Source: a virus
Taxonomy: Duplodnaviria > Caudoviricetes
Length of the DNA stretch: 32,496 nucleotides
Reading direction: 5' to 3' (one strand)
Virus record (IMG/VR): IMGVR_UViG_3300008255_000089
Location: 1-32,496 of that record
Below are positions 1,151 to 21,148 of the stretch, one piece after another. Position 1 is the first letter of the stretch, and each line of letters starts with the position of its first letter. A program made the translations under genes and the position numbers. The notes beneath the pieces were generated by a model. That model saw only the letters and a program-made list of their open reading frames with translations, had not been told where the DNA came from and ran no database searches.

Positions 1151-1185
1151 CGATATAACGCTTTACCAATTAAGGAGAAAGCCCT

Positions 1186-10400: not shown

Positions 10401-10419
10401 AAACAAAATGGAGAAAGCT

Positions 10420-11041: not shown

Positions 11042-11385
11042 TTGACCCAATTAGCATGGCAAGTTTATTGGTACGCATGGCTTTAGTTATTTTTTTTGCC
11101 GCTATGGCTTGGAATTTATACGAGCGGCGTTATTGCGGCATGGCAACTTTGCTATTGGGCATGTTTTTTTTCACGTTTAGGTTTGTGCTTTTGCGCGTTT
11201 TGGCAATCCACCGTTACGACTACGCAAACAGCAGTGCGCAGATACAACAGATTGGCATATGGTTACAGAGCCCAATTGTAACAATATGGGCAGAGTTGGT
11301 AATGCTGGTTGGTATTGTCATGATGGCTAAAAGCTTTAACGGCTATTTTAACAACCATGGAGGTAAATATGGCAGGAGAAAGTAA
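11038..11385 (+). CDS. Membrane protein (3 TM), lysis-cassette associated
   Basis: ATGA-type overlap with the previous gene; three hydrophobic segments; basic C-terminus. Confidence 0.65.
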   Translation: MIDPISMASLLVRMALVIFFAAMAWNLYERRYCGMATLLLGMFFFTFRFVLLRVLAIHRYDYANSSAQIQQIGIWLQSPIVTIWAELVMLVGIVMMAKSFNGYFNNHGGKYGRRK

Positions 11386-11479
11386 GCCCACGGACAACCC
11401 GCTTGGTGGCAAAGACCAGACAGGCAACGAGGGGCTTGGCGACGAGGAATTTAACACGGAGGGCACCAATGGCAGTTGA
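11369..11479 (+). CDS. 36-aa acidic micro-ORF (MAGESKPTDNPLGGKDQTGNEGLGDEEFNTEGTNGS)
   Basis: Strong RBS GGAGGT 4-5 nt upstream; fills the gap and overlaps the endolysin start; below the ORF-track cutoff. Confidence 0.55.
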   Translation: MAGESKPTDNPLGGKDQTGNEGLGDEEFNTEGTNGS

Positions 11480-12644: not shown

Positions 12645-12922
12645 TGCGTATACCCGACGCGCTTAAAAAGGCTGTTTGGGAAACTGTAAAAACAGCAGGG
12701 CGCATTGCTATTAGTGGTGCCATTGGCGCACTGTTTGTTTGGGTACAGGGATTAGTTACTAGCAACACCGACCCCGGCATGGCTATTGTGTATGGCGGTA
12801 TTTTGTTTTTGCTGGATAAGTTGCAATACGCGTTTACCAAAGAGCAGTACAGGCAGGATGCCGCAAAGGCACCAGACCCAATTGTAATGGCACAAAAACC
12901 AAAAGGCATTATCCCTTTTTAG
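12644..12922 (+). CDS. Putative holin (2 TM)
   Basis: 92 aa, two hydrophobic segments, directly after the endolysin (AAGGAGG RBS, TAATG overlap). Confidence 0.65.
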   Translation: MRIPDALKKAVWETVKTAGRIAISGAIGALFVWVQGLVTSNTDPGMAIVYGGILFLLDKLQYAFTKEQYRQDAAKAPDPIVMAQKPKGIIPF

Positions 12923-12945
12923 CGGCAATAGTAAATTGGATAAAC

Positions 12946-12983
12946 ACAAAACCACCGGCGTTTTTATTCGCTGGTGGTTTTGT
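12946..12983. terminator. Probably bidirectional intrinsic terminator
   Basis: ACAAAACCACCGGCG-loop-CGCTGGTGGTTTTGT stem with T-rich runs on both strands; ends the late operon and could end the minus-strand RNA. Confidence 0.75.
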
Positions 12984-12989
12984 TGTGTG

Positions 12990-13182
12990 CCTGCCAAGGC
13001 CTGTTGCCGCTTTCAGGGCTTGGCCCTTTCCCCTTTCGGGTAGTGTCTTGGGGTGGGTTCCGGTAGGCGGGGCTACTTCGCTTTCGCGTCTGTTGCCGCT
13101 TTCAGGTTTTCCTAGGGGCCGCTTTCGCGGTGCCGCTTGTTTTGGTTCCCTCCCCGGTAGGCGGGGCTGCTTCCTTGGCAGG
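12990..13182 (-). ncRNA. Candidate structured ncRNA with two duplicated domains
   Basis: Perfect 10-bp closing stem; three GAAA-tetraloop hairpins on the minus strand; a 17-nt and a 20-nt motif are each present twice; own promoter and terminator. Confidence 0.7.
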
Positions 13183-13221
13183 TTGCTGGTTGTGTTGTTA
13201 ATGTTCCCCTTTTGTGATTCT

Positions 13222-13249
13222 ATCGTACACCAGACTGGTCAAAAGACAA
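13222..13249 (-). promoter_or_regulatory. Sigma70-like promoter for the minus-strand RNA
   Basis: TTGTCT-16 nt-TACGAT on the minus strand (a TAGAAT also overlaps); palindrome ACCAG-A-CTGGT (13229-13239) in the spacer. Confidence 0.55.
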
Positions 13250-13288
13250 GAGGATTTGCAAAAGGGTTACCCTACCCCACCCGGCGCA

Positions 13289-13297
13289 TGATAAAAT
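13289..13297 (+). promoter_or_regulatory. Extended -10 promoter for the sRNA
   Basis: TGaTAAAAT ending 6 nt before the seed hairpin. Confidence 0.6.
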
Positions 13298-13303
13298 TAC
13301 AAG

Positions 13304-13358
13304 TGGCTTTCTCCGAGCCAAGCAAGGCGGTGCCGCAAGGTGCCGCTTTTGCGTTATT
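13304..13358 (+). ncRNA. Candidate trans-acting antisense sRNA (anti-RBS)
   Basis: Hairpin TGGCT-TTCTCCG-AGCCA whose sequence is the reverse complement of the recurring RBS motif CTCGGAGAAAGC; followed by a GCAA-tetraloop terminator. Confidence 0.7.
13322..13358 (+). terminator. Intrinsic terminator of the sRNA
   Basis: AAGGCGGTGCC-GCAA-GGTGCCGCTTTT; the G-U pairs and GNRA loop work only on the + strand; followed by GCGTTATT. Confidence 0.7.
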
Positions 13359-13562
13359 GCGGGTTTGCTCCCCTGCGATAGCCTATACCAAAGGAGCAAC
13401 TAGCATACAAAAACATGGTAAAATTACCTGTTTTGCGTGTAGCGCCACCAGTGGCACGCTGGCGCATTTACCCCGCATAATGGCATTGGATATTTGCCGA
13501 GCGCTTTAAAAGCGTTGTCGTGGGCCATAAAACGAGTTTTTTCCGGCGGCCAAAAAAAAGTA

Positions 13563-13590
13563 TTGCACTTTGCCACTTGAGGTGTATCAT
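13563..13590 (+). promoter_or_regulatory. Early promoter P1 (rep operon)
   Basis: TTGCAC-16-TATCAT followed by GCAGCCAAC; A-tract upstream. Confidence 0.7.
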
Positions 13591-13644
13591 GCAGCCAACA
13601 AACCCTTTGCAAAACAGCTTAATAAATTTAACTCGGAGGCGGCC

Positions 13645-14397
13645 ATGGGTGACAGTAAAAACAAAAGCCCGGCATTTCAATTTTACCCAAAGGATTGGTT
13701 AAGTGATGTGCGCGTGCGCAGCATGACCCCGGCGCAACGTGGTTATTACATTGACCTTTTGGCATACATGTGGCTTGAGCCAGAGGCACAGCTGCCAAAT
13801 GATGACGAGTTGCTTGCCGGGTTGTTGCATTGCAGCGCGGATGATTTAAGGGTGGTTAAAGGGTGCTTGGCAATTGGTTCAAAGGTGGTTACCCAAAAAC
13901 GACTGCAAGCTGAGCGGGATAAACAACGCGAGTGGCGCGAAAAGTCAAAGCTTGGCGGCTTAAAATCAGCAGCAAAACGGCGCAAGGCCAGTGCTGGTAA
14001 CGATAAAGAGCAACCCAACGGTGGTGCAACCACCCTTGGTACCACCCTTGCAACCAAAGGGCAACCAAAGGGCAACATTGCTTCTTCGTTTTCTTTTTCA
14101 AAGAAAGCTAATAGAGGTGTGGATAATGTGGATAACTTTGCAAGTGGTAAAGCTGCTTTTAAAAAATTACCAGATTGGCCCCAACCAGACCAAAAGGTTT
14201 TAAGCCAGTTGGCCAAGTATTGCATGGAACAAGATCCCACTTACTACGAGGGGCAAACAGGTGCCATGCGGCAGGTGCTTAAGTGGGCCAACCAATACGG
14301 CATGCCAAAAATAAACGCGGCCATACAGGCAAACAACATACACGGCAGCCCCGGCCTATTTACGTTTAAACAATTATTGGAGGATGGCAATGTTTAA
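13645..14397 (+). CDS. Replication initiator, DUF1376/YdaU-like N-terminus
   Basis: 'SPAFQFYPKDWLSD...MTPAQRGYYIDLLAYMW....LPNDD..LA' is typical of DUF1376; internal iteron-like repeats; start ATG 13645 after CTCGGAGG. Confidence 0.85.
   Translation: MGDSKNKSPAFQFYPKDWLSDVRVRSMTPAQRGYYIDLLAYMWLEPEAQLPNDDELLAGLLHCSADDLRVVKGCLAIGSKVVTQKRLQAERDKQREWREKSKLGGLKSAAKRRKASAGNDKEQPNGGATTLGTTLATKGQPKGNIASSFSFSKKANRGVDNVDNFASGKAAFKKLPDWPQPDQKVLSQLAKYCMEQDPTYYEGQTGAMRQVLKWANQYGMPKINAAIQANNIHGSPGLFTFKQLLEDGNV
13848..14135. other. Putative replication origin inside the rep gene
   Basis: AAGGGTGGTT-type repeats (13848, 13859, 13881) with inverted copies (14028, 14040), 11-bp tandem GCAACCAAAGG, a T-rich tract, and two perfect DnaA boxes TGTGGATAA (14118-14135). 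Confidence 0.75.
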
Positions 14398-15014: not shown

Positions 15015-15042
15015 TTTACAAAACCCTTTGTTTTGGTATCAT
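15015..15042 (+). promoter_or_regulatory. Early promoter P2
   Basis: TTTACA-16-TATCAT with extended -10 TG. Confidence 0.75.
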
Positions 15043-15080
15043 GAGATTGTAGCAAGTTACTTATTACCCCGGAGAAAGCA

Positions 15081-15110
15081 ATGGCCTTTAAAGAATGGCT
15101 TAGATTTTAA
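15081..15110 (+). CDS. 9-aa leader peptide MAFKEWLRF (possibly a frameshifted small gene)
   Basis: First ATG after P2, preceded by CGGAGAAAGC; the +1 frame stays open to 15168. Confidence 0.35.
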   Translation: MAFKEWLRF

Positions 15111-15179
15111 AAACGGCGACGTGATGCACTTTATGCGTTATTTGGCCGTTGGTTTAGTTACTTTATAAGGAGGGTTGCA

Positions 15180-15392
15180 ATGCAGCGCCAACAGATTCAA
15201 TTGCAGGATTTACCAAAGTACAACAAGGAAAACCGCGACGTTTACGCAATGCGCAGGCAGGAAATTTTCCGCATGTACACTGAGGATGGCCTTACCCTTG
15301 TTGACATTGCCGGGCAGACCGGGTTAACCGCAGTGCGGGTTGGCCAGATTGTGCAGCAGGTTGAGCAGGAAATTGCCACAGCAGGCATTTAA
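15180..15392 (+). CDS. Small helix-turn-helix protein (sigma region-4-like)
   Basis: 'RRQEIFRMY..DGLTLVDIAGQTGLTAVRVGQIV' HTH; AAGGAGG RBS. Confidence 0.8.
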   Translation: MQRQQIQLQDLPKYNKENRDVYAMRRQEIFRMYTEDGLTLVDIAGQTGLTAVRVGQIVQQVEQEIATAGI

Positions 15393-16267: not shown

Positions 16268-16296
16268 TTTACAAAAGGGTTTTGTGATACTATCAT
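16268..16296 (+). promoter_or_regulatory. Early promoter P3
   Basis: TTTACA-17-TATCAT followed by GCAGCCAAC (15-mer identical to P1). Confidence 0.75.
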
Positions 16297-16329
16297 GCAG
16301 CCAACTTAACCAATTACTCGGAGAAAGTA

Positions 16330-16611: not shown

Positions 16612-16637
16612 TTATTTTTAAACTCGGAGAAAAAGCC

Positions 16638-17753
16638 ATGAGCAATTTATTTGCAAAGGCAACGAAAGAAAAAGCCAAACTGCGGCTGGCCATATTTGGC
16701 CCAAGCGGTGCTGGTAAAACGTTTACCAGTCTGAGTATTGCTAAAGGGCTTGGTGGCAAGGTGGCGTTAATTGACACAGAGCGCCACAGCGCCAGTAAGT
16801 ATGCCGACCGGTTTACTTTTGACGTGGCCGACCTTGATAAGCCAACGGTAGACAATTACCGGGCCTTTATTGAGCAGGCCAAGGATTATGATGTGCTCAT
16901 AATTGACAGCCTTACGCATGGATGGAAAGACTTGTTGGCGGAGGTTGACAAGATTGCCAACGCCAAGTTTAGGGGCAATACGTGGAGCGCTTGGAGCGAG
17001 GGCACGCCAAAACAAAATGCCATGGTTGATGCAATACTTAGCTTTCCCGGACACGTTATTGCTACCATGCGCAGCAAAACGGAGTGGTCTATTGAGCAAA
17101 CTGACCGCGGAAAAACAAAGCCAGTGCGGGTTGGCTTGGCCCCGGAGCAGGGTAAGGGGATTGAGTACGAGTTTGATATGTTGCTGGAAATGTCTGTTGA
17201 CAACATTGGCCACGTCATAAAAGACCGCACAGGCAAGTTTCACGACGAAATTATTGACAAGCCCGGCGAGGAGCTTGGCAAGGAGCTTAAAACGTGGCTT
17301 AACACTGGCAAAAAACCTGTTGAGCGGGAGCCGTTGGACATACCGCCAGCGCCACCAATTGAGCAGCCTGCCCCACCAGTTGCCGCACAGGCACAACCAA
17401 AAAGCTTACCACCAAAAAAAGCGGTGGCGGAAAGTTCCGCAAAACTTCCGGCAAAAATTGGCACCAGCGCCAGCTATATGAAGGCCATAAATGATGCCAT
17501 GCAAAAAAGCAACCTTGCGCTGGTTGACGTTATGCCAGCCATAAAAAAGGCCGGGTTTGCTACGTTGCAGGAGGTTACTGTTGACCGTTATGGTGGGCTG
17601 CTTAAGTGGATACAGGACAACCCAAAGCAAGAGGTAGCACAAAAGGCACAACCAACGCCAGTTGCACCAGCCCCGGCAGATGAACCATTGCCAGAGCCAC
17701 AGGGCGACGATGTGGAGCAGTTGGCAGCAGACGCATTGGGTGCAATACAATGA
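16638..17753 (+). CDS. AAA_24 / Sak4-like P-loop ATPase (ssDNA-annealing recombinase family)
   Basis: Walker A GPSGAGKT, 'LIDTE', Walker B 'VLIIDSLTH', 'EYEFD', 'KDRT'; Pro-rich C-terminal part. Confidence 0.9.
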   Translation: MSNLFAKATKEKAKLRLAIFGPSGAGKTFTSLSIAKGLGGKVALIDTERHSASKYADRFTFDVADLDKPTVDNYRAFIEQAKDYDVLIIDSLTHGWKDLLAEVDKIANAKFRGNTWSAWSEGTPKQNAMVDAILSFPGHVIATMRSKTEWSIEQTDRGKTKPVRVGLAPEQGKGIEYEFDMLLEMSVDNIGHVIKDRTGKFHDEIIDKPGEELGKELKTWLNTGKKPVEREPLDIPPAPPIEQPAPPVAAQAQPKSLPPKKAVAESSAKLPAKIGTSASYMKAINDAMQKSNLALVDVMPAIKKAGFATLQEVTVDRYGGLLKWIQDNPKQEVAQKAQPTPVAPAPADEPLPEPQGDDVEQLAADALGAIQ

Positions 17754-20351: not shown

Positions 20352-20380
20352 GCAACCAATTAAATAAAACGGAGAAAGCT

Positions 20381-21148
20381 ATGCAAACACTTGAGTTGGC
20401 CGTTGAGGGCCTGCAAACAAAAATAAAAAAGCCAGTGGTGGTTTTTGACCTTGAGACTACGCACGCGGACGCTACGCTTTGCGAGATTATACAGTTTGCC
20501 GGCGTGCGCATACCGCCAACCGGCCCTGCAACCTCGCTGGTGTTTTTGGCAAAACCAAACGTGCCATGCACGCCAGAAGCAGAGGTGGTACACGGCATAA
20601 CCAACGAGAGACTCGTAAATGAGCCCGGCTTTGAGCACTATATGCCGCAGATTGTTGAACTGTTTACCGGCGCAGACGTTGCCGGGTACAACGCCATTGG
20701 TTTTGACTTGCAAATTTTGGAGCGTTACCTTGTAAAAATGGGGCATTCAACGTTGCTGGATGACGCGCACGTTTTGGATGCGTTTACGCTGTTTGCAAAG
20801 CAATACCCACGCACGCTTACCAAGGCTTTTGAGCTTTACGCTGGCGATGAAATGCAAGACGCGCACGACGCAATGGCAGACGTTGCGGCCACAATAATGG
20901 TGCTTAATGCACAGATTGACCGCGAGGGTAAGCCGTTTACTGCAGTTAGCGAGGCCACCCACATGGCACCAGACAGGCGGGTTGGTTTTACAGACCATAT
21001 TATTATTGACGATACAGGCACCCCGGTAATTAACTTTGGGAAACACAAAGGCACACCAATTGGTTTTGTGCCATATGATTTTAAGCAGTGGATGCTGCGC
21101 AACAGCTTCCCGCCAAAAATTAAGGAATACATAAGGGGCAAAGCATGA
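20381..21148 (+). CDS. DEDDh 3'-5' exonuclease (DnaQ/ExoX-like)
   Basis: 'VFDLETT', 'VHGIT', 'GYNAIGFD', 'AHDAMADV'; C-terminal 'FGKHKG.P...VP.D..QW' motif; start ATG 20381. Confidence 0.92.
   Translation: MQTLELAVEGLQTKIKKPVVVFDLETTHADATLCEIIQFAGVRIPPTGPATSLVFLAKPNVPCTPEAEVVHGITNERLVNEPGFEHYMPQIVELFTGADVAGYNAIGFDLQILERYLVKMGHSTLLDDAHVLDAFTLFAKQYPRTLTKAFELYAGDEMQDAHDAMADVAATIMVLNAQIDREGKPFTAVSEATHMAPDRRVGFTDHIIIDDTGTPVINFGKHKGTPIGFVPYDFKQWMLRNSFPPKIKEYIRGKA

Follow-up and report, generated by a model that had tools for sequence, protein, structure and literature searches.

A putative ~50-nt antisense RNA complementary to a ribosome-binding-site tag at seven translation starts of a tailed phage

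Results

Genome layout

The window, that is, the whole stretch of DNA analyzed, corresponds to a virus record of 32,496 bp that is complete and bears direct terminal repeats. According to family scans it belongs to a tailed phage, and all called genes lie on the + strand. Tail and lysis genes extend up to position 12922 and are followed by a 722-nt gap, after which the gene for a DUF1376-type initiator begins at 13645; downstream of it lie small early genes, the genes for a Sak4-like ATPase and a DnaQ-like exonuclease, and finally the packaging and head genes (Table 1). Neither an integrase nor a partition gene was found when 42 ORFs were compared with PHROGs, 29 with Pfam, and 24 with NCBIfam; thus, there is no visible lysogenic state that would need to be maintained.

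The dinucleotide TC is depleted throughout the genome (odds 0.16 of expectation; GA, 0.66), with odds of 0.13 for TC and 0.30 for GA at codon junctions. The lowest odds for either dinucleotide in 244 other loci of at least 2.5 kb each was 0.54. Family scans of this TC- and GA-avoiding genome revealed no DNA-modification gene.

Table 1. Positions in the window of the predicted small-RNA unit, its possible target sites, and nearby regulatory features (net pairing energies in kcal/mol)
Feature	Position	Strand	Remarks
Target site, 169-aa gene between tail tube and tape measure genes	1174..1183	+	net −5.9, weakest
Target site, 85-aa hydrophilic protein heading the lysis-gene block	10410..10419	+	net −9.0
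Possible eighth site, codons 3-5 of a 36-codon frame (11369-11479)	11375..11383	+	8-nt exact match plus G-U
Operator-like half-site upstream of the small-RNA promoter	13255..13268	+	related half-sites at 13600, 15009, 16268
Extended −10, promoter-like	13289..13297	+	from sequence; without −35 box; predicted start ~13303
5′ seed hairpin	13304..13320	+	13304-13317 complementary to the shared tag; anti-SD bases in loop
GCAA-capped terminator-like hairpin	13322..13352	+	short U tail (4-U)
Target site, start of DUF1376/YdaU-type replication initiator (13645-14397)	13632..13645	+	net −11.6; Pfam DUF1376; PHROG primosomal protein
Target site, 9-codon frame (15081-15110) upstream of the HTH gene	15070..15079	+	net −7.4; first frame after promoter-like 15015-15042
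70-aa helix-turn-helix (HTH) protein	15180..15392	+	Sigma70_r4 E 0.0005, below curated cut-off; Atlas HTH clusters score 0.91
Target site, 93-aa gene without family match	16317..16328	+	net −10.7; first gene after promoter-like 16268-16296
Target site, AAA_24/Sak4-like recombination ATPase	16623..16638	+	net −11.6
Target site, DnaQ-like exonuclease	20370..20381	+	net −13.9, strongest

A predicted small-RNA unit upstream of the initiator gene

A compact unit is located 330 nt upstream of the initiator gene, from which a + strand RNA of ~50 nt (13303-13352), consisting of one seed hairpin and one terminator-like hairpin, is predicted. An earlier first-pass annotation, made from the DNA letters, had described an extended −10 element and the two hairpins, and their coordinates and sequences were found to be as given there. 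The extended −10 pattern occurs five times in the genome when both strands are counted, twice within the 722-nt gap. A scan for consensus −35/−10 promoters and terminators flagged neither the small-RNA promoter nor the + strand terminator; on the − strand, it reported the seed hairpin as a terminator-like structure.

The stem of the seed hairpin consists entirely of Watson-Crick pairs and forms on either strand. The downstream hairpin folds with −19.1 kcal/mol on the + strand versus −10.6 on the − strand, where it is weaker because G-U pairs are used on the + strand; for the whole unit, the values are −26.2 and −17.1 kcal/mol, respectively. That stable folding of the downstream hairpin is confined to the + strand supports an antisense RNA of ~50 nt. 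The seed hairpin had been drawn with a 7-nt loop containing the bases complementary to the Shine-Dalgarno (SD) sequence. These bases do lie in the loop, but in the lowest-energy fold it comprises only 5 nt and has a U-G closing pair. It takes 1.5 kcal/mol to open the loop and 7.1 to open the whole 14-mer. Comparison with Rfam, which had been suggested as a check, returned neither C4 RNA (at E values up to 5 for the whole window, or up to 10 for 12900-13700) nor anything near the gathering score for the small-RNA unit or the neighboring − strand element.

A tag shared by seven translation starts

The sequence complementary to the seed, here called the tag, is found at 7 of 42 starts, all of them ATG, over a length of 9-14 nt. 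The early region contains five of the seven, the tail block one, and one heads the lysis block. The pairings of the seed with these seven start regions are exactly those written down in the first-pass annotation; calling them a genome-wide regulon, however, was an overstatement, given that 7 of 42 starts are involved, including one 9-codon frame and two weak sites in the late region. Look-alike promoter sites at 13564, 15015, and 16268 each have a target as the first frame downstream. The flanks of the tag do not match the usual 3′ end of 16S rRNA. By a hand count, 7 of the 14 differences among targets fall at G/U-facing positions, which is not a clear bias toward G-U pairing. The 5′ and 3′ extensions vary between targets, and the seed site matches all of them taken together.

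In the whole genome, 13304-13317 is the only − strand match to the tag of at least 8 nt. It is not located at a gene start and opens no reading frame on its own strand, on which the site reads as a ribosome-binding site (RBS) followed by TTG-TAA. Despite the genome-wide purging of TC, the seed retains two TC steps within 10 nt. A TC-containing 7-mer at the 5′ end of the tag is present three times on the + strand (0.15 expected), each time at a target, and once on the − strand, in the seed hairpin. The retained TC steps may thus reflect selection to keep the match between seed and tag.

Several of the frames concerned deserve mention. The 169-aa gene is, judged by position alone, likely a tail chaperone. 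The 9-codon frame and the HTH gene share one reading frame, interrupted by a single TAA; no other stop occurs before 15180 (by eye; 15081-15392). The 36-codon frame with the possible eighth site had not been listed; it is acidic, has a strong RBS, and overlaps the start of the amidase gene.

The match between seed and starts is unlikely to be due to chance

The 42 starts were curated by hand; that of the 9-codon frame at 15081 owes its inclusion to its tag. Ranks 1-7 of 42 were taken by the seven named starts, both by duplex energy and by net energy after opening both RNAs; net energies ranged from −13.9 to −5.9 kcal/mol, and the eighth start had −2.9. Among + strand probes, those at 13301-13307 are the genome's only 14-mers that form at least nine contiguous Watson-Crick pairs with at least four starts.

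Shuffled controls, which the first-pass annotation had called for, bore out the pairing. The six starts observed at 9 nt were reached in 17 of 3,000 dinucleotide shuffles of 12923-13600 (106 of 3,000 for the 8-nt criterion), whereas none of 10,000 shuffles of the gap reached five starts at 10 nt. Random 5-bp hairpins with CUCC in the loop attained six starts at 9 nt in 76 of 200,000 cases, and five starts at 10 nt in 7 of 200,000. Because such hairpins are so rarely as good, the anti-SD core alone does not explain the match. As a further control, 80 unrelated loci (1.16 Mb, 1,275 starts) were analyzed with automatic gene calls, sites with an open start behind them being filtered out; none reached four starts (maximum three), compared with 5 of 38 starts for the window under the same gene calling. 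Since the choice of statistic was made with the match already known, all of these chance figures are optimistic. Still, the feature is real, and the match is unlikely to have arisen by chance.

Likely protein-level control of the tagged genes

Operator-like half-sites occur exactly four times in the genome at no more than one mismatch, each beside a promoter-like site (those at 13564, 15015, and 16268, or the small-RNA promoter). The HTH protein is a candidate binder of these half-sites. Because the HTH gene and the four half-sites are both present, protein-level control of the same tagged genes is likely. The initiator gene itself contains short direct and inverted repeats (14030-14072), a feature also of lambdoid origins. 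These repeats have a core in common with the half-sites, which makes the initiator an alternative binder.

Other elements in the gap

Divergent from the small RNA, a structured element of ~275 nt lies on the − strand (12940-13215), in which a 10-bp closing stem surrounds two duplicated units of ~90 nt with GAAA tetraloops; it ends in a two-way terminator-like hairpin at 12946-12983. Its fold z-score is −5.0 on the − strand and −3.4 on the + strand. The + strand of 12990-13182 contains 14 TC and no GA, which is the opposite of the rest of the genome. Neither an Rfam match nor, in pattern searches of viral and metagenome sequences, a homologue of this element was found; it may act as an RNA or as a signal in single-stranded DNA. 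An 8-mer common to the element and to the terminator of the small RNA has four of its five + strand copies in the gap (13005, 13094, 13131, and 13341). The notion that the neighboring − strand RNA acts as a sponge for the small RNA was rejected, as co-folding gained less than 2 kcal/mol. A second extended −10, at 13414-13427, is identical to 13287-13300 at 13 of 14 positions and is followed by several hairpins before the initiator promoter; it possibly drives another small RNA or a long leader.

Relatives of the phage

No relative carrying the small-RNA unit was found when viral contigs were queried with the initiator, Sak4-like, and terminase proteins and with the capsid protein, the latter both singly and as an alignment, and genomes with the Sak4-like protein. 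These protein queries yielded single-gene homologues only, the best being 55-58% identical for the capsid, 63-67% for the terminase, and ~50% over half its length for the initiator. None of 244 other loci of at least 2.5 kb contained more than one tag-plus-ATG site. The exact hairpin pattern gave four matches, which were read as chance, and a promoter-plus-seed pattern gave 26, none with the promoter-hairpin-terminator unit of this phage. Patterns from the neighboring element returned 4 viral matches and, among the matches listed, 80 metagenome stretches; these, too, were attributed to chance, except for a copy of the same phage. The latter is the only other copy found. It is 99.97% identical to the window, and none of its three differences is in the seed or the targets. 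Among GenBank phages there was one weak 35-nt match only. A search for sequencing runs returned none, which speaks neither for nor against the RNA.

Start-associated sequences of Cluster K mycobacteriophages

Among published architectures, that of the start-associated sequence (SAS) in Cluster K mycobacteriophages comes closest. Ribosome sites carry 11-19 copies of SAS; its function was stated as unknown, and a single inverted copy was reported for four Cluster K phages (PMC3203893). In the accessible text of a report from 2024, it was still unexplained (PMC11373665). Going by these accounts, SAS is a private SD extension on many non-structural genes with a single inverted copy away from gene starts. 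The tag described here is likewise a repeated asymmetric motif at the RBS position, followed by ATG and present in one orientation except for a single inverted copy. The two differ in sequence and in number (13 bp and 10-18 copies per right arm for SAS; 9-14 nt and seven copies here). As to the genes marked, SAS has been described on non-structural ones; of the seven tagged starts here, five are in the early region, one is in the tail block, and one heads the lysis block. The Cluster K loop lies inside a structured leader of ~270 nt and is not kept across the cluster, the phages of which are described as temperate with a protein repressor.

In phage Adephagia, the inverted SAS copy forms the loop of a long hairpin in the gap between genes 92 and 93 (L181, 28545-28880). 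This gap, which is the reported start of late transcription (PMC11373665), is conserved in 188 phage records. The ~270-nt element lies behind a conserved promoter-like site, and across 10 sequences 21 of its 68 pairs show double-sided changes; it had no Rfam match (L181 and L184-L195). Three Cluster K records annotate a hypothetical ORF over it. In a hand-picked set of 14 homologues, the loop mirrors SAS in four, is degenerate in four, and is absent in six, whereas SAS itself was unchanged in six of six right arms checked. Covariation between SAS and loop was not found in Cluster K (right arms only). Thus, an SAS-type tag can persist without its mirror at the homologous Cluster K locus, which lowers our confidence that the tag described here exists because of an RNA.

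Discussion

An antisense RNA that acts on the ribosome sites of its own phage is, in our judgment, probably the best explanation for the sequence pattern described here. The proposal of the first-pass annotation that a small RNA targets a shared RBS tag therefore keeps its place as the best account of a non-chance pattern, although this pattern comes from one genome. In this model, host RNA polymerase would synthesize the ~50-nt RNA from the extended −10. Its open loop would seed on the GGAG of a target, upon which the stem of 5-6 bp would unzip and give way to 10-14 pairs with the target. The RNA would thereby mask the region between SD sequence and start in seven frames, and ribosome loading would be blocked. 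Being short and structured, it would build up as infection proceeds and increasingly damp the translation of five early frames (those of the initiator, the exonuclease, and the Sak4-like ATPase, plus two more), and more weakly that of the tail gene and the head of the lysis block. The small RNA would thus be a timer of early shut-off, alongside—not instead of—the HTH gene and the four half-sites. The two late-region targets, which include the weakest match, fit early shut-off poorly.

Alternatively, the tag might be a start-associated sequence that is read by a protein, either a repressor or a translation enhancer, the hairpin then being a sense-orientation decoy on a − strand RNA or an add-on that controls nothing. 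The model for such a repressor is RegA of phage T4, which acts on the initiation regions of a group of early replication genes and damps their translation. It resembles the factor proposed here in that one phage product addresses several early genes, but RegA is a protein and not an RNA. A seed stem that is all Watson-Crick and forms on either strand would suit this alternative, as would the adjoining structured − strand element and the persistence of SAS in Cluster K, where the loop is absent in 6 of 14 homologues and degenerate in 4 of 14. On the − strand, however, the tag would sit half buried in the stem, the adjacent hairpin is only half as stable, and the promoter-like site on that strand (13245-13221, by eye) lies to the left of the hairpin, not to the right. 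In addition, family scans of this phage revealed no homologue of RegA, and those against PHROGs, Pfam, and NCBIfam no RNA-binding protein family. We regard a protein-read tag as unlikely, while ranking it first among the alternatives.

Next in rank, and rather improbable, is the view that the phage merely uses this variant of an RBS, the inverted copy being either a weak terminator on the − strand or what remains of the start of a leftward gene since lost. The nulls at 9 and 10 nt and the 80-locus control argue against it, as do the match of the seed site to the union of the targets' variable extensions and the two TC steps kept in 10 nt against genome-wide purging. What speaks for it is the − strand reading of an RBS followed by TTG-TAA, the scan that calls the seed hairpin terminator-like on that strand, the 8-nt null (just 106 of 3,000), and the fact that any genome yields many post hoc patterns.

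Least probable, and in our view doubtful, is an RNA that takes the place of CI in immunity or copy control, either by keeping the phage in a plasmid-like carrier state or by excluding superinfecting siblings: the position 330 nt upstream of an initiator gene that it targets, the lack of a leftward CI-like gene, the lysis-block head among the targets, and the service of C4 and sar RNAs in lysogeny, as described in the accessible texts (PMC5320573; PMC12197685), would all agree with it, but neither an integrase nor a partition gene was found, every called gene lies on the same strand, and the HTH gene with operator-like half-sites at the same promoters offers protein-level control. With no lysogeny module and likely protein-level control, the suggestion in the first-pass annotation that the RNA may replace a CI repressor has little basis.

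Trans-acting RNAs of the favored, antisense type have precedents. One is the CI RNA of satellite P4, the loop of which occludes a ribosome-binding site of its own message. C4 RNA of P1/P7 is, like the unit described here, a phage-encoded trans-acting RNA with a loop directed against the ribosome-binding site of its own phage's message; the loop pairs with and occludes the site, and the RNA has three stem-loops with two target loops, is processed by RNase P to ~77 nt, and plays a role in immunity (PMC5320573). Compared with C4 as described there, our unit has one seed hairpin and a terminator within ~50 nt, no Rfam match, and seven dispersed targets in a phage without visible lysogeny genes. 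By structure and by Rfam it is thus not C4, which it resembles only in its working mode. SviR, encoded by the Vibrio satellite PLE, pairs through its seeds close to the ribosome sites of several genes, both its own and those of the helper phage, and translational repression was shown (bioRxiv 10.1101/2022.04.08.487710). Hence, a multi-target RNA that acts on phage genes already has a precedent. SviR is larger (210-nt main species) and has two seeds and two genomes to act on, and the accessible part of the report describes no shared start tag (bioRxiv 10.1101/2022.04.08.487710). A literature search, largely of the main text of openly accessible papers, found no publication in which a phage RNA is antisense to a tag common to several starts.

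In the literature consulted, as far as its accessible text goes, phage antisense RNAs each act on one or a few messages, and the phage RNAs covered by a review are mostly single-target (PMC12197685). If the interpretation as an antisense RNA is true, one tiny RNA would address dispersed genes via an extended ribosome site, forming a compact, protein-free regulon. It would also suggest an RNA partner for start-associated sequences, whose role was still called unknown in 2024 in the text accessible to us (PMC11373665). A broader idea, which we put forward only tentatively and consider less likely to be true than false, is that a phage without lysogeny module relies on a single ~50-nt RNA to time its early shut-off, the RNA masking the private tag of seven RBSs and being wired together with the HTH protein into one switch, and that phage SAS in general, including those of Cluster K, would be address tags for such RNAs. 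The phage described here, without known host or relative, is a poor test system. Adephagia represents the same tag-and-mirror design in a cultured phage, and its loop is testable in Mycobacterium smegmatis.
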